Assembly: GCA_963747655.1 (NCBI GenBank)
Contig: CAVVFS010000002.1
Location: 201,789-265,788, forward strand
DNA: 64,000 nucleotides
Reading direction: 5' to 3'
Origin: an uncultured Gammaproteobacteria bacterium
GTDB taxonomy: Bacteria; Pseudomonadota; Gammaproteobacteria; Enterobacterales; Enterobacteriaceae
The notes below the pieces were generated by a model. That model had not been told where the DNA came from and ran no database searches. It was given only the letters and a program-made list of their open reading frames with translations. The position numbers and the translations under genes were made by a program. Shown one piece after another: positions 44,694 to 59,872 of the stretch. The stretch's first letter is position 1, and each line of letters begins with the position of its first letter.

Positions 44694-45904
44694 TTGACTA
44701 TCGCCGCCACCAGCAAGTTTGACTTTGAATCGGTCATTGAACGCCAGTCTCATCATTCCACCAAATGGCTGGAGGTTAGTGAATTCTCGGATAGCCCATT
44801 CGGGCCAACTATCCCTCTATGGATTGCCGATATGGACTTCAAATCGCCACCTGCTGTGTGCGAGGCTTTACAGCAGGCAGTCGAGCACGGTATTTTTGGC
44901 TACAGTGAATGGTCAGAAGATTTCTTCGAGCTTTATTGCCAGTGGCAGGAAACACGGCACGGTTGGGTTATCGACCCGCAGTGGGTATTGCCCTGTGAGT
45001 CAGTGATAAGCGCCATGGACATCATTATTCGCTCCTACAGTCAGCCCGATGATGAAATCATTATTCTCTCCCCGGGTTTCGGGACGTTTAATCGCATCAT
45101 CAAGCATGCCGGTCGCCGAGTCGTTGACGTGCCATTGACTGAGAATGAGCGCCATTATTCGCTGGATATTATCCGCCTTGACGCGAGCATAACACCGCGC
45201 AGCCGAATGCTGGTGCTGTGTAATCCGCATAATCCGATTGGCAAAGTCTGGCATCGTGACGAATTAACGCAAATTGCTCAGTTTTGCCAGCGCCACGGAT
45301 TATTGCTTCTGTCGGACGATGTGCATCAGGATCTGGCTATTGGAGAGGTGCCTTATACGCCGGTTGCCGGGCTTGAAGAGGCAGTTTGCCGATTTACCCT
45401 TACCTTCACTTCGCCCTGCAAGCCCTTCAACCTCAGCGGATTACCGATCACTCATCTGGTGATTAAAAATGCTGCAGATTAGAGAGCGGGTCGAGTCACG
45501 AGCTTGAAGCAATTCAGTGTCCATAAGCCGAACATGTTGGGAATGGTGCCTGTGACGCGGCCTATCGTCACGGTGCGGCCCTGGCTGGATGCGTTGATTG
45601 ACACCCTCGAGCCAACTACGCGCTACTGGACGAGGGTCTGCGCAATATCGCTAACGTGACATTATTTCACAGCGAAGGCAGTTATCTGGCGTGGCTGGAT
45701 TTTCGAAAAACGTGGATTAACGCTCAGGCTGAGCTGCAACAGCGACTGACTCAAGACAAGCCGGTCTGTTGCTCAACAGCGGGCTGAAATTTGGCTCTTA
45801 ACGGTAGCGGTTTTATGCGTTTAACTTTGCCCTGCCGCAGCTCGGAATTAGTGAAGGTTATCGAGCGTTTAGTCCAGTGTTTTAATGACTTAAAAATCAC
45901 ATAA
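44694..45904 (+). CDS. MalY/PatB-family PLP C-S lyase (frameshifts after 45470)
   Basis: PLWIADMDF, HGIFGY, LCNPHNPIG, SDDVHQD, SPCKPFNLSG; later EGSYLAWLDF. Confidence 0.87.
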
Positions 45905-45988
45905 CAATAAGCCGTTTTAAGCATTTGTAGTTGTCGCCAAGGCAGATAATAATCCGTTGATTAGCAAACGTTAATTCTTCGGAGCCAC

Positions 45989-46724
45989 GTGATTAATGTC
46001 AGCGGATTAAATAAAAGCTTTAATCAATACGCCGCCCTGCGCGGACGTTAATTTTTCGGTCGCAACGCAGTGAAGTCGTTTCGGTTATCGGGCCTTCCGG
46101 CTCTGGGTAAATCGACTTTGCTGCGCTCCCTCAATCTGTTGGTCAAACCTGATACCGGAACGCTACAAATTGGCGATCGGCAAGATCGATGCGGAAACGT
46201 TAACCCGTAAACAAACCGCCGAATTCCGCCATCAAACTTCAATGGTTTTCCAGCATTACAACCTGTTCAAAAACAAAACTGCGCTCGAAAACATCACCGA
46301 AATTCTGACTTGTACCCAGGAGCTCAATAAAACCCAGGCCCGCGAGCGTGGCATGGATCTGCTGTCGACAGGTGGTCTGGCGCACAAGGCCGACGCTTAT
46401 CCGGTGACCCTTTCCGGCGGTCAACAGCAGCGCGTGGGTATTGCCCGTGCGCTGAGCGTCGATCCCGCAGGTGATCCTGCTGGATGAACCAACCTCCTCA
46501 CTGGACCCCGAGATGCGCCGTGACGTGTTGAATCTGATTGCCGGACTGGCAAGCCGTAACTTGACCATGATGATAGTCACCCATGAGATGAGTTTCGCCC
46601 GCGACGTTTCGGATCGCATCTTCTTTATGGAACAGGGAAAAATCATCGAACAGGGAAAACCTCTCAGATATTTACCGCCTCCGCCGAGAGTCGCACCCGC
46701 GCCTTCTTACACGACTTTGCCTGA
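45989..46724 (+). CDS. Polar amino acid ABC ATPase (many frameshifts)
   Basis: Walker A region GPSGSGKS; MVFQHYNLF; LSGGQQQRVGIARAL; DEPTSSLDPE. Confidence 0.8.
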
Positions 46725-46806
46725 GCCCGATTATTATTATTACAAATCCGTGCCTTTGCAAAGAATGACCTGCTTACCAATCTTATAATCTACGGAAAGT
46801 CCTGCC

Positions 46807-47524
46807 ATGAATTTCGATTTCCGCTATATGCTGAGCATTATTCCGCAGATCCTCAGCTATTTGCCGGTCACGTTGCTGATTTCGGTATTGTCTATTTTAC
46901 TGGCGACCGTGCTAGGGATTATTTTTGCCCTCCTGCTGCGTGGCGGGTATTAAAATTCCCGCGGCCTTTGCCCATCTGTATATTTCATTTTTTCGCGGCA
47001 CGCCGGTATTAGTCCAGCTGTTGATTATCTACTTCGGTCTGCCGCAGTTTTTCCCGGCGCTAAATTCGATGAGTGCGATTAACGCGGTAGTGCTTGGCCT
47101 TAGCCTCAATACCTCGGCCTATTTGGCGGAAATATTTCGCGCTGCTATCGATTCCGTGGACAAAGGCCAGCTGGAGGCCTCTCTGGCCTCAGGGCTTACC
47201 GTGTTTCAAGCCTCATGGCGCATCGTTTTCCCACAGGCCTGCCGCAATGCTATCCCGGCTACGGGAAATATATATATCGGACTGATAAAGAACTCATCGC
47301 TAGCGTTTACTCTCGGCGTGACAGAACTGCTGGCGGCTGGGAAATTAGCCGCCACCGAATCACTTAAATATTTTGAAGCCTATTTTGCCGTCGGCCTTAT
47401 TTACTGGGCAATGACCATTATTCTGAGCGAATTACAGCGTCGTCTCGAAAAGCTCGTTAATAAACCCTACCTCCATTATAAAGGGATCGGATTTAAACAG
47501 CACGGCGTTATTCTCATTAATTAA
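46807..47524 (+). CDS. Polar amino acid ABC permease (frameshift near 46930)
   Basis: FRGTPVLVQL; SAYLAEIFR; IKNSSLAF. Confidence 0.85.
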
Positions 47525-50511: not shown

Positions 50512-52137
50512 ATGAAGACTTCTACCGCGATTCACTCTTTTTCTGCCCTGACACTATTAATACTTTCTGCATCGCACCCGCTTTATGCTGCTGAAAAACC
50601 ACAACAGGGCGGTGATTTAACCTGGGGCGTAGAAGTTGAGCCAAGTACGTTAAATCCGCAGCTAAACGGACAAGATAAAACCGAGCTGTTACTCAGAGAA
50701 TCCTATGAGTCCCTGTTGGCGCGCAAGCCCGACGGCAGCTACATTCCCTGGTTGGCAAAAGCTTATAAAGTCTCCGACGATGGCAAAACCTACACCTTCA
50801 CACTGCGCGATGACGTCAAATTCTCTAACGGCGAAAAATTCGATGCCGAGGCGGTAGCCGAAAACTTTCGCCATTTGCAGGACCCGTCATACACCGCGGG
50901 TTCTGGTTTAAGCGTATTTGGCGCGCGCATTGCCAATATCGCCACACCCGATGACCATACCGTCGTCATTGCCTTGAAAGAGGTTTACAGCCCGTTCCTT
51001 TCATTCTCTAGCTATCTGAGATTGCTGTCACCGTCATCGTGGAAATCGTCGCAGCTAAAATCCGGTGGCCCAGAAATCATCGGGACCGGTCCGTTTATTC
51101 TTAAAAGCTACCAAAAAGGTCAGCAAATCCGGTTCGTGCGTAACCCTGATTATCACTGGGCTCCAGCTTATGCCGCGCATCAGGGGCCAGCCTGGCTCAA
51201 TAGCGTGACTTATCGTTTCCTGCCTGAATCCTCGGTGAGAACTGGCGCGCTATTGTCGGGTCAGGTTGATGTTATTGAAGGTATTTCTGGCAATGACGCA
51301 GCAGAGTTTGAAAATAATGCCGATTTCACCTATCAGCATGCTTTAAACACCGGCACTCCTTATTCCCTGTTCCTGAATGTTAAATATGGCCCAACACAGG
51401 AGCTGAAAGTCCGTCAGGCGATATTACAGGGATTGGATATTGGACCGATTCTGAAATCGATTTATCGCGGCTAATCGTACTCGCGTGTGGGGTATTACCT
51501 CGCCGCTGGATCCTTTCTATGACAACAGCCTGGAAGGCAAATACGGCAATAATCCACAGCTTGCTAACAAACTGCTTGATGAAGCGGGTTGGAACAACAA
51601 GAGGCAGCAGCGGCATCCGTACCAAAGACGGCAAAACGCTGACGCATCGAAATTATTCAGGCGCAGGCTACTGTCCGCGACCAGCGTGACGTGCTGCTAC
51701 AGGCTTTGCAGGCCGAGGCCAGACAAAAGCTGGGCATTGACCTGAAGATCCGCTATGTCGATTCCGGCACCTATACCGAAGTGCGTAAAAACGGCAAGTT
51801 TGGCTCGATTGCCAACTCCAATACGCCGACTGACGGTATTGATATCGAAAACCATTATCTGCCGATTAATGCAGGCGGATCAATCAACTACAGCCGTACC
51901 GATGCTCCGGAAATTTTGCCATTGCTGCGCGCCGCCTGGCAGACCCAGGACAACGCAAAACGTAAAGCCTTGTACGGACAATTGCAAAATTTTGCTATTG
52001 CCCAGCAGGCGCTGGCTATCCCACTTTATGAGCCAGAAGACCAGATTGCCGCCGCCAGTTACGTTCACGGTATTGGTTTCCGCCCATTCAAACAGATGCC
52101 GGAAAATACCTATGACGTTTGGGTCAGCAAGCATTGA
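50512..52137 (+). CDS. Family 5 (peptide/nickel-type) ABC substrate-binding protein (frameshifted)
   Basis: Signal peptide; TYTFTLRDDVKFSNG; GTGPFIL; ends YDVWVSKH. Confidence 0.85.
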
Positions 52138-52193
52138 TCAGTAAAAACAGGCATTGATCGGCAATAAACGAAGTCAGCACGAGGAGTTATATC

Positions 52194-53208
52194 ATGTCAG
52201 TTGACAGCACGCTCACGACCGAGCAGCAGTCTGGGCGTAAACCACGCAGGCAGTCTGTGTTAGTAAACCGTATCGCCAGGCGGAGTACTGAGCGGCGCGC
52301 TGGTGCTGTGGGCGGCGGTAACGCTGTCCTTTATTAGCGTCTATTTGGCGCCTGGAGATATCGTCAGTCTGTTGATTGGCGAGCAGGTTCGCACCCCGGA
52401 AATTGAAGCGGCAATTCGCGCCGAATGGGGCCTGAATCAGCCGTTGTATATGCAATATTTGCACTATCTATGGCGTATCCTGCACGGCGATTTTGGCCGT
52501 TCTTACTTGCTTAATACCGACGTTACCGGGCTGATTTTAAGCCAGCTTTGGCCAACGCTTAAAACTCACCGGACTAGCACTGGTGGTAAGCATTGTATTT
52601 GCCGTCATTATGGCGGTCGCCACCGCTCATCGCCGCTGGGGTCGTCGCATTGCCGGTTCGATGGAGCTATTACTGGCCTCAACGCCGTCGTTCTGGCTGG
52701 GGATCGTGCTGCTGTTTATCTTCAGCTTTACCCTGCGCTGGTTCCCGGTAGCCGGTGATCGCAGCTTCTCTTCGCTGGTGCTTCCGGCACTGTCTTTAGG
52801 GCTGGCTCAGGGCGCGGTGATTGCACAGGTGTTGCGTCGTGGGCTTGAAGACGCGCTCGATGAACCTTTTGCTCTGACACTGCGCGCCTGGGGAATCGGC
52901 AATACTCACCATTCGCCTACGTCATGCATTGCGTCATGCGGCTTTGCCTGCGGTAACCCTAACCGGCTGGCTGATTGGTGGCCTGCTTAGCGGTGCGGTG
53001 ATCACCGAACAGGTATTTGGCCGTCCCGGGTCTAGGGCAAAATCACCGTCGATGCCGTGCTGGGTAAAGACCTGCCGGTGGTGTTGGCGGTGGCTATTTT
53101 TTCTGCCTTTGTATACGTCGTGATGAGTACGCTGGTGGACATTCTTTATTTGCTGATCGACCCACGCCTGCGTGAAGCGCGATGCTTCCAGGCGAGGAAA
53201 ACTCATGA
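52194..53208 (+). CDS. DppB/OppB-type permease (frameshifted)
   Basis: LAPGD...WGLNQPLYMQY; TPSFWLG; VITEQVFGRPG. Confidence 0.82.
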
Positions 53209-54048
53209 GCCAGACTCTTTCTAGCCGTTGGCGTAAAACGCCAGTATTCCCTGGGCTATGGCCTGGCGCGTGTTTTATCTCTTTCTTAGTGTGACTGGCG
53301 GTGCTGTTGCCGGGTTTGATCAGTCATTACGATCCGCTTAGCGCCGATCCGGTTAACTCCATGCTGCCGCCCTTCCTGGCAGCACTGGCTTGGCACCGAT
53401 CAACTGGGCCGCGACGTGCTGACTCGCATTATTTATGGCAGCCGTTATTCCATGCTGATTAGCCTGGCGGCGATGGCGATTGCGGTCAGCGATCGGCACC
53501 GTGCTGGGCCTGCTGGCCGGTCTGGCAAAAGGTCCGGTAGACGAGTTTATCAGCCGCGCAGTGGACGTTATTTCCGCCTTCCCCGACCTGCTGCTGGCGC
53601 TGATGCTGATTGCCTTTACCGGTCCTGGCACCGTTAACCTGATTTTTGCTCTCGGCGTCGCTTCCATTCCGCGCTTCACCCGCGTAGTGCGTGCACAAAC
53701 TTTCTTGTGATGTCATCAGGTTATGTTGAACAGGCGCGCACCTTTGGCCTAAAACGCCGCGTGCTGATCTGGCGACACGTTTTGCCGCACGCCATCGCTC
53801 ACGTTCCCGCATTGGCGACCCTAGGGCTGGGCACCGCGATTATCGGCACCGCCGGCCTGAGCTTTCTAGGGATGGGCCCTCAGCCACCTACCGCCGAATG
53901 GGGTCTGATGCTGGCCGAAGGCAGAAACTATTTACGAAATGCCTGGTGGATTGCCGCTTTCCCCGGCGTCGCGATTACCCTGACCGTGATTTCGGTCAAC
54001 ACTCTGGGCCGTTACTGGCAGGCCGCTTTTGAAGGAAAACAATCATGA
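53205..54048 (+). CDS. DppC/OppC-type permease (frameshifted)
   Basis: LGRDVLTRIIYG; GLSFLGMGPQPPTAEWG; WWIAAFPG. Confidence 0.82.
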
Positions 54049-55635
54049 GCCACGAACTGTTTATCGATATCCAAAATCTGCGGATCCGCTTTCGGCGACA
54101 AAACGGTGATCGGCGGGTCTGAATCTGCAATTGAAACACGGTGAGTCCATCGCCTTTGTCGGTGAATCCGGCTCAGGGTAAAACGGTAACAGCGCGCAGC
54201 CTGCTGGGCTTGCAGGATGCCAAAGCCAGTATTACCGCCGATCGATTTCTGATCAACGGTGAAGACATGCGCGGTGCCAGCCAGCGTCGCTGGCGTAAAA
54301 TTCGCGGCAGACAAATAGGTTACGTGTTGCAGGATGCGCTGGTGTCGCTCGATCCGCTGCGCCAGATTGGTCAGCAACTCGTGATGCGCTGACCGCCAGC
54401 CAAAATATCGCGCGCGGTTCTCTGCGCGCACAGTCAGTCGCGTTACTAAAATCGGTGGGAATTCCCGATGCAGAAGCTCGATTAAGCGCCTATCCGCATC
54501 AGCTGTCGGGCGGCCTGCGTCAGCGGGCATTAATTGCCACCGCGCTGGCCGGAAAGCCCAGCCTGCTAATTGCCGATGAGCCCACCACCGCGCTGGATAT
54601 GACGGTACAAAAGCAGATCCTCGATTTGCTGCAAAAACGACGCGATAACGGGCAAAGTCTGCTGTTGATTAGCCACGATTTGTCGGTGGTCGGACAGCTG
54701 GCCGACCGTATTCTGGTGATGAAAGACGGCGAGGTGGTTGAGGAAGGCAATGGGAAAGCCTGCTGCGCTCCCCACAGCATCCCTATACAAAACAGTTGCT
54801 TGCCGCGGTGCCAAGTCCGGCGACGCGTGGCTTTAAACTCTCCGGTGAGCCTGGGCAGCCATTACCTGCAAAAACGATTTCTACCGCTAAACCAGTGCTG
54901 GAAGCCAGTGGACTGTTTAAACAATACGCCAAAAAAACGGTAGTTAATCAGGTGAGCTTTACCCTTTCTGCGGGAGAAACGTTAGGGATTGTCGGCGAAT
55001 CTGGCTCAGGAAAATCTACCGTCGCCAAAATGGTAATGGGATTAATTGAACCAGGCAGCGGGACGATTAGCATTCAGGGCCAGCGCTGGAGCCAGGTGCC
55101 GGAGGCGGAACGTCGTCTGCGCCGCCGAGGGATCCAGTTAATCGCCCAAGACCCACTAAGTTCGTTTGATCCGCGCTATAACGTGGAGAAAATCATTGGT
55201 GAAAGCCTCGACAGCGTGGAGATTTACGGCGACGAGCGTAAACGCCGTATTCGACAACTGTTGGATGAAGTTCAGCTTGGGCCGAGCTTTATGAGCCGCT
55301 ATCCTCGAGAGTTATCCGGTGGTCAGCGCCAGCGTATTGCCATTGCCCGCGCTTTTGCGCCAAACCCGGCATTGCTGATAGCCGATGAACCGGTGAGCGC
55401 ACTGGATGTTTCAGTACAGGCGCAAGTACTGGATTTGCTTGCAGAAATGCAGGCTGAACATCATACCGCCCTGCTGTTTATCTCTCACGATCTCGGCGTG
55501 GTTCATCATATTGCCGACCGCGTGGCAGTCATGAAAGACGGCGTGGTGGTTGAGCAAGGTCAGGTCGATAACGTATTCCATCGCCCGGCGCACCCGTGGA
55601 CTCAGCAGCTGATTAACTCATTGCCAACCTTCTGA
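54045..55635 (+). CDS. Tandem-domain peptide ABC ATPase (frameshifted)
   Basis: Two GESGSGK motifs, YPHQLSGG and YPRELSGG, DEPTTALD and DEPVSALD; ends HPWTQQLINSLPTF. Confidence 0.87.
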
Positions 55636-55866
55636 CTTAAGTCATTTTTCTTAAAGGGCGGGACTTTACAGAGCATAAACAACTCGGTAGTATCCCGCCC
55701 AGACATCAGGGTAATCCCCTTTTGCGTAAGCGTTAACGTTAACCAACGCACCATTTGCAGGCTTAATCTGCTTATTGTGCGGTGATTTTATGACTCAGCC
55801 CCAACCTTCTTTTGCACGTGCCTCTGTTGTTTCCAGCCCCGGTTTCTTTCTATTTATCGTTTTGAT
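55549..55866 (+). repeat. 318-bp direct repeat, left copy
   Basis: GTTGAGCAAGG...ATCGTTTTGAT matches 57503-57820; compared by eye, two mismatches (55575 A vs 57529 G; 55850 C vs 57804 T). Confidence 0.95.
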
Positions 55867-56044
55867 GATAATATTTGCCGTAGTGGCGACTAATGCCTCG
55901 TAGCTAAGCCAGAGGTTGGTTTAGTCTCGGCATCTACTTTCGTATAAACTTTATCTTGTGTAACATGGTTATCTTTTAATTTACTTTAAAGCACACAGGT
56001 TCGTTGGATTTTTAGACGACATGTGTTAAGTCAAGAGCATAAAA

Positions 56045-56968
56045 ATGAGTTACCGTCCTGAGCAAGTTTTTCGCTTTAATGGGTCTGTTGGTGTCTCTGG
56101 CACTAATAATCTCGAAGATGTAAAACATCTTCAGGAAATGATTATCAGTGCAGGATATAACCAAATTAGCGGCAATCATGTAAGGGTGAATGGCCAGATG
56201 GATAGTAATACCAAGATGGCGATTATTTGGTATCAGAGATTGTTAAATATGTCTCCTTCTGGACTAGTTCATCCTATGGAAACATGGTTTTTTAACATGT
56301 TCAGCAAAGCTATTTCCCCACACTGGCGGCCTCGACACACTATTGGAACTTTGCATGTGCGAGAAGGCCAGTTCACTTTCAATGCAGAAGGTAGAGATTT
56401 TATTACCGCTGTAGAGCCTTTTAAGCAGCCACTCAACATGCCAAATTTCTCCCGTGTACTTTATTATCCGGGAGGGGGTTCTGGTGTTACCCTTGGGAGA
56501 GGGTATGACATGAAGCTACGTAGCTCAGGAGAAATTCTTTCTGACATTAGGGCAGCGGGCATTGAGGAATATAAGGCTGTTATTTGTTCTAAGGCTGCGG
56601 GTTTAAATGGCCGTCAAGCTGCAAAATTTGTAAGATATTATGGACCTTTAGTCGGAGAGATTACCCATTTGCAGCAAGTGCATTTGTTTGAAAACTCCTT
56701 TCAGAGTTATATCCGCACGGGCCAAAGAATCTTTAATTTTAAAAAAAATTTAACACATAGCCAAATGACATGGAATAAAATAAATGCAAGAGTAAGGGAT
56801 ATATACTTAGATAGTCTTTACCAAGGGTGTTATTCCGCTTCTAAGTTTGCCTTTTTAATTATAAAGAATAATATTAACGACATTCGTCACTATCTAAAGA
56901 CAGATCCTTTTCAAGTCAACACGTATGGAAGAAACATTCTAAGACTGAGGTATATAAGTGAATTATAA
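56045..56968 (+). CDS. Peptidoglycan-binding domain plus pesticin-C-like muramidase
   Basis: N-terminal GTNNLEDVKHLQ...VNGQMDSNTKMAIIWYQ (PG-binding-like); C-terminal FTFNAEG...YPGGGSGVTLGRGYDM (pesticin/T4-lysozyme-like catalytic region). Confidence 0.8.
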   Translation: MSYRPEQVFRFNGSVGVSGTNNLEDVKHLQEMIISAGYNQISGNHVRVNGQMDSNTKMAIIWYQRLLNMSPSGLVHPMETWFFNMFSKAISPHWRPRHTIGTLHVREGQFTFNAEGRDFITAVEPFKQPLNMPNFSRVLYYPGGGSGVTLGRGYDMKLRSSGEILSDIRAAGIEEYKAVICSKAAGLNGRQAAKFVRYYGPLVGEITHLQQVHLFENSFQSYIRTGQRIFNFKKNLTHSQMTWNKINARVRDIYLDSLYQGCYSASKFAFLIIKNNINDIRHYLKTDPFQVNTYGRNILRLRYISEL

Positions 56969-57434
56969 ATACATTCTAATGGCAGCCATTGTCCCATTGC
57001 TTACTCAACAAGCTTTAGCTGCTCCTGATCAGAACCTTTTAACGGGCACAGAGTCCACTTATTGCCAACAGAAGGGAATGAGCGAGTCAAAAAATTTTGA
57101 TTCTTATATTAGCTGTATGCAATCAGAGGAGGATAAATCTAAAAAGTTATTGAATGCTACCTTCAATAAAGCACTTTCAAACGTTCAATCCGAAAATTGG
57201 CTTCTACCAAATGTTAATTATGAAAGCGAGAAATCAAAAATAACTAGCAAAAACAAATTTGATTTGCAAGATGATCAAAATCATTGGCTAAAGCACAAAT
57301 CTGAATTTTGTAATGTTTTAACATCTAAAATAAGTGATTCAGCTAAGATGTACTCAGTTCTACTCATGCAATGTCATATAAATATGGATAAACAACGAGC
57401 TAAGGAACTGAATTATCTTTTGAATAATAACTAA
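56958..57434 (+). CDS. LprI/DUF1311-family lysozyme inhibitor, putative immunity protein
   Basis: Signal peptide, four Cys, LNATFNKAL...DQNHWLKHKSEFC...C...QRAKEL; start overlaps the muramidase end by 11 nt. Confidence 0.78.
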   Translation: MNYKYILMAAIVPLLTQQALAAPDQNLLTGTESTYCQQKGMSESKNFDSYISCMQSEEDKSKKLLNATFNKALSNVQSENWLLPNVNYESEKSKITSKNKFDLQDDQNHWLKHKSEFCNVLTSKISDSAKMYSVLLMQCHINMDKQRAKELNYLLNNN

Positions 57435-57447
57435 TGTTTTAAAATTT

Positions 57448-57484
57448 AGGACTGCAAAGCTGAAAAAATACGGTTTGCAGTCCT
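57448..57484 (+). terminator. Hairpin after the immunity gene
   Basis: AGGACTGCAAA...TTTGCAGTCCT. Confidence 0.65.
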
Positions 57485-57502
57485 CAATACTTTTAAATAA
57501 GA

Positions 57503-57820
57503 GTTGAGCAAGGTCAGGTCGATAACGTGTTCCATCGCCCGGCGCACCCGTGGACTCAGCAGCTGATTAACTCATTGCCAACCTTCTGACTTAAGTCATT
57601 TTTCTTAAAGGGCGGGACTTTACAGAGCATAAACAACTCGGTAGTATCCCGCCCAGACATCAGGGTAATCCCCTTTTGCGTAAGCGTTAACGTTAACCAA
57701 CGCACCATTTGCAGGCTTAATCTGCTTATTGTGCGGTGATTTTATGACTCAGCCCCAACCTTCTTTTGCACGTGCCTCTGTTGTTTCCAGCCCCGGTTTC
57801 TTTTTATTTATCGTTTTGAT
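57503..57820 (+). repeat. 318-bp direct repeat, right copy
   Basis: Contains the last 87 nt of the ATPase gene, the intergenic region and the first 77 nt of the MFS gene. Confidence 0.95.
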
Positions 57821-58946
57821 TACCGCTGCAAACCTTCGTACACCGTTCACTGCGCCCGGCCCGATTCTGGAAAATATTCGCGCGGCCTTTGGCCTGAGTG
57901 CCTCAGCGGCAGGATTACTGAATTTTATTCCCTTGATGATGTTCGCGGTTGTGGCGCCCGTCGCCTCATGGCTAAGTCATAGAATCGGTCTGGAGAAAAG
58001 TCTCTTTGGAGCAGTTTGCCTGATTACATTAGGGTCGATTCTGCGTATCGCGCTGGGTGAATCGGGTTTATGGCTGGGAACTACGATGCTGAGTGGCGGG
58101 ATTGCCGCGGCCAACGTGCTGTTACCGCCCTTAATTAAGCGTGATTTTAAACAACATACGGCGAAATATATTGGCCTTTATGCCTCAACCATGGCGATTA
58201 CTGCCAGTCTGGCATCGGGAATTGCCGTACCGCTGGCACAGGCAACCTCTCTCGGCTGGCATCTTTCAGTGGGAATCTGGATTATTCCTGCGATTGTCGC
58301 GACCCTGGTCTGGTTACCGCTGCTGAAAAAGTCTTCCTCTGTTCAGACGGCGCAGCCAGCCACCAGCAAAATATTGAAATCTCCGTGGCGTTCGGCGCTA
58401 GGTTGGCAAGTTTCGCTATTTATGGCGGCACAATCGATGGTGTTCTACACCTTGATTGACTGGTTTACCCCTTACGCACAGGCAAACGGTTTTAGCCAGA
58501 TTTCTGCGGGATGGTTGCTGTTTATTTACCAGGCAATTTCTATTATTGCCAATCTGGCCTGCATGAGAGCGTTGAAGAGAATGAAAGATCAGCGGCTGAT
58601 TGGATTTAGCGCTTCGCTGGCCATTTTTATCGGCCTCGGCGGGCTTTATCTCGCCCCACATTATGCTTTGCTGTGGCTGATTATTGCGGGTTTGGGCGCG
58701 GGGGCTTCAATGGTAACCTGCCTGTCATTGTTCAATCTGCGCGCTGCGGATCACTATCAGGCTGCCCAGCTTTCAGGCATGGGGCAATGTGTCGGTTATG
58801 GTATTGCGGCACTCGGCCCGCTGATTTTTGGCATGCTGCACCAGTTCAGCGGCAACTGGGCACTGCCGCTGTTCGCGTTGCTTGCCATTAGCCTGTCACA
58901 GATGGTGTTATCCGTGCTGGCTGGGCGCGCAAAACAAATTGGCTAA
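57744..58946 (+). CDS. CynX/NimT-family MFS transporter
   Basis: AANLRTPFTAPGP, ANVLLPPLIKRDF, LSGMGQCVGY. Confidence 0.88.
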   Translation: MTQPQPSFARASVVSSPGFFLFIVLITAANLRTPFTAPGPILENIRAAFGLSASAAGLLNFIPLMMFAVVAPVASWLSHRIGLEKSLFGAVCLITLGSILRIALGESGLWLGTTMLSGGIAAANVLLPPLIKRDFKQHTAKYIGLYASTMAITASLASGIAVPLAQATSLGWHLSVGIWIIPAIVATLVWLPLLKKSSSVQTAQPATSKILKSPWRSALGWQVSLFMAAQSMVFYTLIDWFTPYAQANGFSQISAGWLLFIYQAISIIANLACMRALKRMKDQRLIGFSASLAIFIGLGGLYLAPHYALLWLIIAGLGAGASMVTCLSLFNLRAADHYQAAQLSGMGQCVGYGIAALGPLIFGMLHQFSGNWALPLFALLAISLSQMVLSVLAGRAKQIG

Positions 58947-59115
58947 ACGCGCTTACGATTTTTGACCCGGTTCTGGCATTTTAGACGGGTCATCTTTCGC
59001 ATAATCCGGCTGTGGATTATCCTTCACACGTTTGAAATCTTCATTAGCCTTGTCTAGATCGCTATTCTTACACATATTTATTTACTCCTCCTTAAGTCGT
59101 GTCTCGTCTCATGAC

Positions 59116-59310
59116 GTTATTTAAAAGCCTATTTAACATATCTATTTAACATGTCTATTTAAGATTTACATATAAAAATCTGGCCTTTCTAGAAACATGT
59201 CTTTCTAAATAAGTCTATTTAAAGAGCTTGTTTAAAAAACTCACACAAGTAGATGATTTAACCATCACACTAAAATATCGACTTAAAATAAGCATCGACT
59301 TAAAAATAAC
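59116..59310. repeat. Degenerate array of about 13-bp units (core TATTTAA)
   Basis: TATTTAA at 59118, 59130, 59143, 59156 and 59216, with variants at 59186, 59202, 59229, 59255, 59280 and 59297. Confidence 0.6.
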
Positions 59311-59380
59311 GAGGCCCACAGACAGTGCCGTGGGCCGGATAGCAATAATTCATAAATCACTTATCCAAATAGATTTTGGA

Positions 59381-59551
59381 TTAGTGACTACCATGACTAT
59401 TTTTGCCACCTTTTTTACCTGCTTCACTGGCACGCTCACGGTCATCGGCGAAATTCCCTTTGCCGTGTTTGTTACCGCCTTTTTTGCCCGGATCTGTAGA
59501 TTTATCATGATTGTCTGCAGCATTACCGGTACCACCACGATGCTCGGCCAT
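59381..59551 (-). CDS. KGG-repeat general stress protein (YciG/YmdF/Con-10 family), 56 aa, missing from the ORF track
   Basis: Hand translation: MAEHRGGTGNAADNHDKSTDPGKKGGNKHGKGNFADDRERASEAGKKGGKNSHGSH*. Confidence 0.9.
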   Translation of the reverse strand: MAEHRGGTGNAADNHDKSTDPGKKGGNKHGKGNFADDRERASEAGKKGGKNSHGSH

Positions 59552-59872
59552 AATATCCTCCTAACGGATAAGTTCTGTCCTTTTAAAGGCTTTCCATTTG
59601 CAAAGTAACATCCTGTTATAAGCCTATATTAAGAGCATGATGCTCGAAATTAATAATAGTGCAGCCTTTAATTATGTCAAAAAAAGCATCATTATTTTAA
59701 CCAAATACTTATAACCTGCTAATTAATAAAAATAAATAATAACCAGAAAATAGCAAGGTTATTTATAATGCATTAAATTCCATAGAGTTAAATAAGTTAA
59801 TTTTTATATGTATTTTTTAATAAAGCTAATCAAGTTTTAAGCTTTGTCATTGGCTCGTATAAATAACCAGCT

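Follow-up and report, generated by a model that had tools for sequence, protein, structure and literature searches.

The DNA analysed here, referred to below as the window, is a stretch of 64,000 nucleotides (nt) corresponding to C2:201789-265788 of a 4.85-Mb, 9-contig Rouxiella genome. Between a gene for an ABC ATPase and a gene for a major facilitator superfamily (MFS) transporter, it carries a small cassette of two genes, encoding a predicted muramidase effector and its putative immunity protein, and this cassette is enclosed by two long direct repeats of host DNA. The features of the locus, in window coordinates, are as follows.

54141-55635, plus strand: fused two-domain ABC ATPase gene (peptide/nickel importer type; Pfam ABC_tran, NCBIfam DppF/OppF/GsiA-type), split over three frames in the assembly, with the last fragment at 54796-55635.
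55549-55866, plus strand: left copy of the 318-bp duplication, in which the ABC gene has its true 3' end and is followed by the intergenic region and a truncated MFS start; it aligns to a single copy in Rouxiella sp. WC2420 (G009, a sister species) and in L134 (a conspecific contig).
55665-55693, plus strand: sigma-70-like promoter match (TTTACA-17-TAGTAT) from a consensus scan, the presumed MFS promoter, which in this left copy faces the cassette.
55775-55903: truncated open reading frame (ORF) of the MFS start, entering the insert by 11 codons.
55867-57502, plus strand: inserted DNA, not present in conspecific or sister genomes.
56045-56968, plus strand: effector gene, 307 amino acids (aa), with a peptidoglycan (PG)-binding domain at aa 24-74 (Pfam PG_binding_1) and a C-terminal predicted muramidase domain of the pesticin/T4-lysozyme fold.
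56958-57434, plus strand: putative immunity gene, 158 aa from GTG or 151 aa from the ATG at 56979 (the Logan gene call), its start overlapping the effector stop.
57448-57484, plus strand: hairpin with an 11-bp perfect stem and a 15-nt loop, 14 nt past the immunity stop, read from the sequence and missed by the terminator scan owing to its loop.
57503-57820, plus strand: right copy of the 318-bp duplication, made up of a dead 87-bp ABC 3' fragment, the true MFS start and, between them, intergenic DNA that includes the promoter-like site.
57619-57647: second copy of the promoter-like site, in the right repeat.
57744-58946, plus strand: CynX/NimT-family MFS transporter gene, intact, 400 aa from ATG, with a TTG alternative at 57729.

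The two repeats, identified by repeat search and pairwise alignment, are identical at 316 of their 318 positions and lie 1,954 bp apart from start to start. They differ at 55575 (A, versus G at 57529) and at 55850 (C, versus T at 57804), 27 and 17 bp inside the outer edges, and both differences are synonymous in the ABC and MFS frames. Of the 318 bp in each copy, 87 are the end of the ABC ATPase gene, 139 are intergenic and 92 are the beginning of the MFS gene. In a scan of the whole 4.85-Mb genome, this pair is the most identical short-range repeat of its kind, and it is beyond chance. The insert between the copies is 1,636 bp long, with a GC content of 0.37 compared with 0.51 in the flanks. 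It contains only two ORFs, neither of which is an integrase or transposase according to the ORF list and searches with Pfam and NCBIfam, and the repeat search found no terminal inverted repeats at its ends. No integrase, excisionase or fragment of either is present in the insert or in the neighbouring genes. The insert ends lie 178 bp upstream and 68 bp downstream of a clean bicistron; these two end segments, considered as a possible site for a recombinase acting in trans, have no match in 100 loci or elsewhere in the genome itself, and plasmid and phage collections contain no match to the insert. No tRNA gene lies at the repeat, and the neighbours are a transporter operon and the MFS gene. 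An earlier reading made from the letters of the window alone (the sequence-only reading) had described 318-bp direct repeats with two mismatches around 1,636 bp of low-GC DNA that lacks an integrase, a transposase and terminal inverted repeats; all of this holds.

The cassette is a true insertion into host sequence, accompanied by a 318-bp duplication. In four sister species (G002, G003, G004 and G009, the last with 95% identity), the ABC and MFS genes are adjacent and the site is empty, with the 318 bp present once. The empty allele also occurs within the species: a conspecific Logan contig (L134, run ERR15285253) aligns without gaps to the flanks joined in silico, with 99.05% identity over 3,045 bp. 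Thus, the repeat is the ordinary host DNA that the sequence-only reading took it for (the ABC end, the intergenic region and the MFS start), and the single-copy allele that it had proposed to look for in relatives exists. The duplicated DNA is also informative in its alleles. Three of them (at 55590, 55652 and 55712) are common to both copies and differ from those of L134 and G009. Since both copies carry these lineage-specific alleles, the duplicated DNA is the lineage's own. At the two mismatch positions, the left copy reads A...C and the right copy G...T, and the conspecific contig and the sister species read G...C. Two differences in 318 bp are within the ~1% divergence between strains.

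Support for the two junctions comes from a Logan unitig of run ERR10755938, which matches window positions 55820-57559 exactly and ends 30 nt past each mismatch. These ends are where a k=31 graph would be expected to break if both alleles of both mismatches were present in the reads. Judged by this match, both junctions exist in the raw data.

The sequence-only reading took the cargo for a muramidase/immunity pair, an assignment with which the Pfam domains and the predicted structure agree. A sequence-profile search of the effector against solved structures recovered only the PG-binding domain, and the muramidase fold needed structure prediction. The AlphaFold2 model is of moderate quality overall (predicted local distance difference test score, pLDDT, of 65), with a pLDDT of ~75-90 in the C-terminal domain, and its top Foldseek matches are to Yersinia pestis pesticin (4aqn, 4arm and 4epf; E value 4e-4, probability 1.0), followed by T4 lysozyme. 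Among 30 homologs, T149 and D155 are invariant and E115 is nearly so; the six-residue spacing of T149 and D155 is like that of pesticin T201 and D207, the equivalence of these residues being judged by eye. The second protein has a signal peptide, read from its translation, that ends in ALA before AP, and an LprI (DUF1311) lysozyme-inhibitor domain (Pfam, E value 4e-8). The hairpin downstream likely ends the transcription unit. The genome contains two TssC loci and one orphan Hcp gene. Most likely, its type VI secretion system carries the muramidase into the periplasm of rivals, and we infer that the LprI protein is a periplasmic immunity protein guarding the producer and its kin.

Orphan pairs homologous to the two genes are widespread, occurring in Cronobacter, Pseudescherichia, Pantoea, Erwinia, Rosenbergiella, Pluralibacter, Kosakonia and others. 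The closest protein homolog is 62% identical and is found on short metagenomic contigs amid housekeeping genes, a homolog in the Pantoea agglomerans type strain is 50% identical, and the exact effector is on record only in one 1,740-bp Logan unitig. A second, diverged muramidase/LprI pair (49% and 25% identical) is present in the same genome at C4:164123-165507 (L030 6124-7507). It lies in a low-GC island that is missing from all other Rouxiella genomes searched, so that there is no empty site for comparison.

Whether the cassette also sits in long duplications at other loci had been raised by the sequence-only reading, and it does so in Rosenbergiella, in Pectobacterium and in a metagenomic genome. 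Flanking repeats were sought by self-comparison of 80 homolog loci. Long repeats flank the cassette at 6 of 58 homolog loci, versus 0-1 of 58 control positions. Homologous cassettes within duplications of 130-420 bp in these three groups are found at:

L049 5654-7767
L078 5650-7689
L090 4863-7752
L088 4671-7121

In Rosenbergiella nectarea and R. collisarenosi, the repeats are 274-279 bp long and consist of a bidirectional terminator together with the 3' ends of the two convergent genes that flank it; an empty single-copy site is present in at least three other species. Five Pectobacterium species have conserved repeats of ~130 bp, composed of a terminator, intergenic DNA and a gene start, between which the length of the cargo varies from 2 to 3.4 kb. 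The gammaproteobacterial metagenomic genome (L088) has 420-bp repeats that include the end of a permease gene and form a tandem array. Each locus duplicates its own local host sequence, from which it follows that every locus acquired its duplication independently. Copies from different Rosenbergiella loci are homologous only over the bicistron and ~50 bp upstream of it. The homologous cassettes are scattered over many unrelated loci, with housekeeping genes as neighbours, and none of the homologs is surrounded by a larger element. A larger prophage or island that includes the cassette, which the sequence-only reading had named as the finding that would change its view, was not encountered in 41 relatives, the 80 homolog loci, plasmids or phages.

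The scan of the genome revealed further small low-GC islets between repeats of 100-356 bp. At C3:341660-344276 (L128 1261-3877), an orphan Hcp gene and a gene for a 230-aa membrane-like protein lie between 317-bp repeats that are 93% identical; the site is empty and single copy in G009, the mismatches switch cleanly between the copies at 163/164, and tRNA-Lys genes and RtT elements adjoin the islet. At C5:443377-445051 (L129 1078-2752), a glycosyltransferase-like gene is enclosed by 181-bp repeats (98% identical), and G002, G004 and G007 have the empty site; a copy of this gene (91% identical) occurs at a second locus in G004, with no repeats there. The islet at C8:333845-335283 (L130 1046-2484) is 1.2 kb in size and contains a DUF1493 gene and a gene for a 172-aa membrane-like protein, and the 104-bp repeats on either side of these genes extend over the 3' half of tRNA-Met; the islet has no integrase and is probably a decayed conventional island. 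At C4:162224-162578 and 163440-163795 (L030 4225-4580 and 5441-5796), 356-bp repeats, 92% identical and derived from the 3' part of a NUDIX gene, flank a 205-aa ORF beside the diverged muramidase/LprI pair, with no empty site for comparison. Finally, C2:2341-17000 and C4:368500-373300 contain low-GC arrays of 200-700-bp repeats with 85-95% identity and a spacing of 1-5 kb, which look like orphan toxin-tip arrays of the Rhs/CDI type.

The older of these events indicate how such repeats age. The Rosenbergiella repeats are 93% identical within a genome and 85-87% identical between species. In these repeats and in those of the C3 islet, the differences are mostly insert-proximal and the interiors are identical, a pattern indicative of long persistence accompanied by gene conversion. 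Because interiors are homogenized while edges diverge, repeat identity is a poor clock, and repeat-flanked structures are not necessarily short-lived. The near identity of the two copies in the window thus says little on whether the insertion is recent, as the sequence-only reading had it.

We propose that the locus is a natural insertion with long target duplication of a 1.6-kb foreign two-gene weapon unit, to which we assign a probability of roughly 0.45. Somewhat short of an even chance, the insertion may have been made in one step and without homology, by two joints in overlapping order. In this mechanism, foreign DNA would have been joined to the chromosome at two points in the strain's own lineage, the left end of the insert after 55866 and the right end before 55549. 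Either staggered end-joining or two switches of replication template could produce such joints, and either would copy the intervening 318 bp. Duplications that span an intergenic region would survive selection, since each gene end and the promoter remain present in one intact copy. The left repeat also puts a copy of the presumed MFS promoter in front of the cassette. Once formed, the repeats would be a substrate for RecA, allowing precise deletion of the cassette with restoration of the empty allele, its amplification, or homogenization of the repeat interiors; the flanking homology would allow the whole structure to pass between strains. Loss of the cassette would be counter-selected, as a cell left without immunity would be killed by its siblings. 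So unstable an architecture may be seen with 'addictive' cargo because its loss is punished by kin killing.

Several observations weigh against this proposal. The joining mechanism leaves no readable signature, and the insert has no close match that could point to its source (the best homolog is 62% identical). Single-crossover integration yields an identical product and is experimentally documented, and the two mismatches fit either model. The non-reference alleles lie in the outer, functional parts of the genes, whereas in the older examples it is the insert-proximal parts that diverged. About 90% of the homolog loci have no long flanking repeat, so either other routes exist or repeats decay. 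The integrated topology rests on the assembly and the k=31 unitig. Finally, the C8 tRNA-Met islet suggests that not every such islet may need to be explained by long target duplication.

The first alternative, which is the circle model of the sequence-only reading, is import by a Campbell-type event; we consider it to be on the unlikely side. A non-replicating circle of ~1954 bp, or an ends-in linear molecule, would have carried the cassette with one copy of the 318 bp and integrated by a RecA-dependent single crossover; the molecule would have been excised from a close donor that already had the structure, and the crossover at the empty site would have fallen between the mismatch positions. 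The product is exactly as a single crossover predicts, and of 60 recombinants obtained by Escherichia coli conjugation with a non-replicating plasmid, 56 had arisen by a single crossover, their duplications measuring 109-950 bp (PMC3240628). The mismatch pattern fits a cross between an A...T host and a G...C donor, and two differences in 318 bp suit a donor at the distance of another strain. However, the circle must already hold the 318 bp, which leaves the first event at any locus unexplained, and the three lineage-specific alleles found in both copies require the donor to be nearly the same clone. Moreover, it is not evident how a 2-kb circle lacking both an origin and a transfer function would move from cell to cell, and an ordinary double crossover in the flanks would move the structure equally well. 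The two mismatches were considered as a test of in-place duplication versus import by crossover and were set aside, both models predicting the pattern with equal probability. The mosaic pattern of the older repeats was rejected as a test as well; it is expected from a diverged donor or from the decay of redundant fragments combined with gene conversion.

Alternatively, the duplication may have come first. A larger, transient tandem duplication would have received foreign DNA in one of its copies, and deletions would then have left 318 bp on each side; the foreign DNA, possibly much longer originally, would have been trimmed to the smallest structure with intact genes. Tandem duplications are frequent and unstable in enterobacteria, as work from the Roth laboratory established, which favours such a start. 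This sequence of events would account for three features: in every example the repeats stop a short way into the two genes and include the intergenic region, the insert lacks conserved ends, and repeat lengths range from 64 to 420 bp. It nevertheless needs three events, and neither surplus foreign DNA nor traces of a larger duplication can be seen, making it improbable in our view.

Still less probable is a decayed site-specific element, for which the 318 bp would be the attachment site and whose own integrase would have inserted it before everything was lost except the toxin/immunity pair. Attachment sites are likewise direct repeats of host sequence that are single copy in empty genomes, the C8 tRNA-Met islet without an integrase indicates that clean decay to a small islet may happen, and tRNA-linked cases are listed as probable site-specific events in the survey of Furuta et al. 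(2010, PMC2853133). Here, however, neither the insert nor its neighbours contain an integrase, an excisionase or a fragment of one, there is no tRNA, and the cassette is part of no larger element among the relatives, plasmids and phages searched. The homologous cassettes are at many unrelated loci among housekeeping genes, and 318 near-identical base pairs with lineage-specific alleles are unlike an element-borne attachment site.

An assembly artefact or an episome, in which the chromosome would have one 318-bp copy and the cassette would be misjoined or a separate circle, is scarcely credible: although a k=31 unitig has the same k-mers for the integrated form (A...C / G...T) as for an empty A...T site plus a G...C circle, both junctions and all four alleles are in the ERR10755938 reads, the 9 contigs suggest long reads able to span 2.3 kb, a 1954-bp circle without a replication gene should not persist, and the same architecture is present in several independent assemblies of other genera.

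The sequence-only reading held that both neighbouring genes remain whole. This is correct for the MFS gene, the product of which falls into a 90%-identity cluster with the CynX/NimT family MFS transporter of Rouxiella sp. WC2420 (the clustering by which the genome is assigned to Rouxiella), but not for the ABC ATPase gene, which has five 1-bp indels (54093-54754), all 5' of the repeat, compared with the intact 533-aa ORF of G009. The latter gene is thus probably a pseudogene, for reasons unrelated to the insertion. The ABC importer operon as a whole (51470-54760) has ~20 single-base indels relative to G009, the five of the ATPase gene included, and a second cluster of indels is present at 45380-47060, with none in the stretches between clusters or in the MFS gene. 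From their distribution, the clusters look like real pseudogene decay and not like general assembly error. Downstream of the MFS gene, a low-GC stretch (58950-59870) contains 13-bp periodic repeats (TCTATTTAACAT...) at 59128-59175 and, on the minus strand, a small gene for a KGG-repeat stress protein (59381-59551). This stretch is native, as it is also present in the conspecific contig.

The locus bears on how orphan type VI effector/immunity pairs enter chromosomes without a mobility gene. It is a clean and probably young example, with filled and empty alleles in one species, and offers a simple experimental system for excision, circle formation and kin killing in a non-pathogenic Rouxiella. 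Insertion with long target duplication may, beyond this locus, be a general and cargo-independent entry route for recombinase-free 'addictive' modules, made by the host and kept by kin killing; we regard this extension as possible but doubtful. It would cover restriction-modification genes, toxin/immunity pairs and perhaps toxin-antitoxin and defence genes. A host pathway would join DNA at two staggered points or switch replication templates, the cargo nuclease not being the maker, and the products would sometimes persist across speciation, as in Rosenbergiella and Pectobacterium. If this is true, long repeats are the readable scar of how orphan weapons and defence islets enter chromosomal hotspots.

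Among known systems, an insertion sequence or transposon was rejected, there being no transposase and no terminal inverted repeats, and the duplications (64-420 bp) vary between events. Like tyrosine-integrase islands and prophages, the insert has direct repeats of host sequence at both ends that are single copy in empty genomes. Unlike them, it has no integrase and no tRNA, its repeats are far longer and more identical, and the host sequence differs from locus to locus; a remnant of such an element was likewise rejected, no such gene and no larger element with a shared attachment site having been found in the 41 relatives, 80 homolog loci, plasmids and phages. At the right joint, GTTGAGC fits the GTTRRRY core of integron cassettes, by eye only, and the ends are not shared with the family copies; a 318-bp duplication is not an integron insertion product.

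Amarir-Bouhram et al. (2011, PMC3240628) studied single-crossover integration in E. coli, using conjugation to introduce plasmids that do not replicate. As in those integrants, the insert lies between direct copies of a homologous segment (109-950 bp there), an arrangement that recombination can reverse. In that study the homology was cloned in and the whole plasmid integrates, whereas here there is no backbone, no marker and no known way for the segment to have been picked up.

The cargo resembles Pse15/Psi15 of P. agglomerans, which confers a competitive advantage that depends on the type VI secretion system T6SS1 (Leo et al., bioRxiv 10.64898/2026.08.01.741415); Pme of the same species is a similar protein, described in an earlier preprint (bioRxiv 10.1101/2023.03.17.533219). 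Both Pse15/Psi15 and the Rouxiella pair are bicistrons in which a protein with a C-terminal pesticin-like muramidase domain is followed by an LprI-domain protein, and both are orphans, located in variable regions away from the secretion gene cluster. Of the features that define the Pantoea pair, the Rouxiella locus has the predicted pesticin/T4-lysozyme fold with its conserved residues and the adjacent downstream gene for a predicted secreted LprI protein. Pesticin itself (PDB 4aqn) is a plasmid-borne bacteriocin, the receptor-binding and translocation domains of which are absent from the Rouxiella protein. The Pantoea hotspot study (bioRxiv 10.64898/2026.08.01.741415) shows where effector pairs sit, not how they arrive, and the Pantoea papers describe neither flanking duplications nor a mechanism of entry. 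In the open-access texts searched, we found no report that connects type VI effector pairs with long target duplication.

Displacement arrays of orphan effector/immunity modules or Rhs/CDI tips, which are explained by homology-facilitated illegitimate recombination (Kirchberger et al. 2017, PMC5361080), are similar in gaining toxin/immunity modules without a recombinase and in leaving partial copies of an upstream gene, as L088 appears to do. They differ in that their repeat is the conserved 5' anchor of the toxin locus, whereas here the repeat is housekeeping DNA without relation to the cargo, and the insertion displaced nothing.

Insertion with long target duplication was reportedly described for restriction-modification genes by Nobusato et al. 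in 2000 (Gene 259:99). Furuta, Abe and Kobayashi (2010, PMC2853133) found restriction-modification genes of all types within long, variable target duplications of up to ~420 bp, in many phyla, with no other mobile element present and by a mechanism that they left open, although they suggest that the restriction enzyme contributes by breaking DNA. Their definition requires direct repeats of more than 30 bp that are single copy in a relative lacking the insert, an insert shorter than 20 kb with no integrase, transposase or phage genes in it or next to it, a repeat that is not a tRNA, and restriction and modification genes as cargo. The Rouxiella locus has 318-bp repeats, single copies in L134, G009, G002, G003 and G004, and a small insert with no such genes and no tRNA in the repeat, and it departs from the definition in its cargo, which is a toxin/immunity pair. 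It shares with the restriction-modification insertions the small unit without integrase or transposase, the long and variable repeats (tens of bp to ~420 bp) that are single copy at the empty site and often include the end of a neighbouring gene, the low GC content of the insert, and a cargo the loss of which is punished. Unlike them, its cargo is a secreted toxin with its immunity protein and has no DNA-cutting activity, its host is an enterobacterium not known as naturally competent, and its repeat also duplicates a promoter that faces the cargo. As this cargo cannot cut DNA, the idea of restriction-enzyme breakage is inapplicable here, which argues against it and points to a host process combined with selection against loss. 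The sequence-only reading had put the locus forward as an undescribed system; in fact, the architecture is in print (PMC2853133), as is the cargo family (Pse15/Psi15). What is new is a known architecture with a new class of cargo, recurring across genera, and the locus thereby ties effector/immunity cassettes to an architecture so far discussed for restriction-modification genes.

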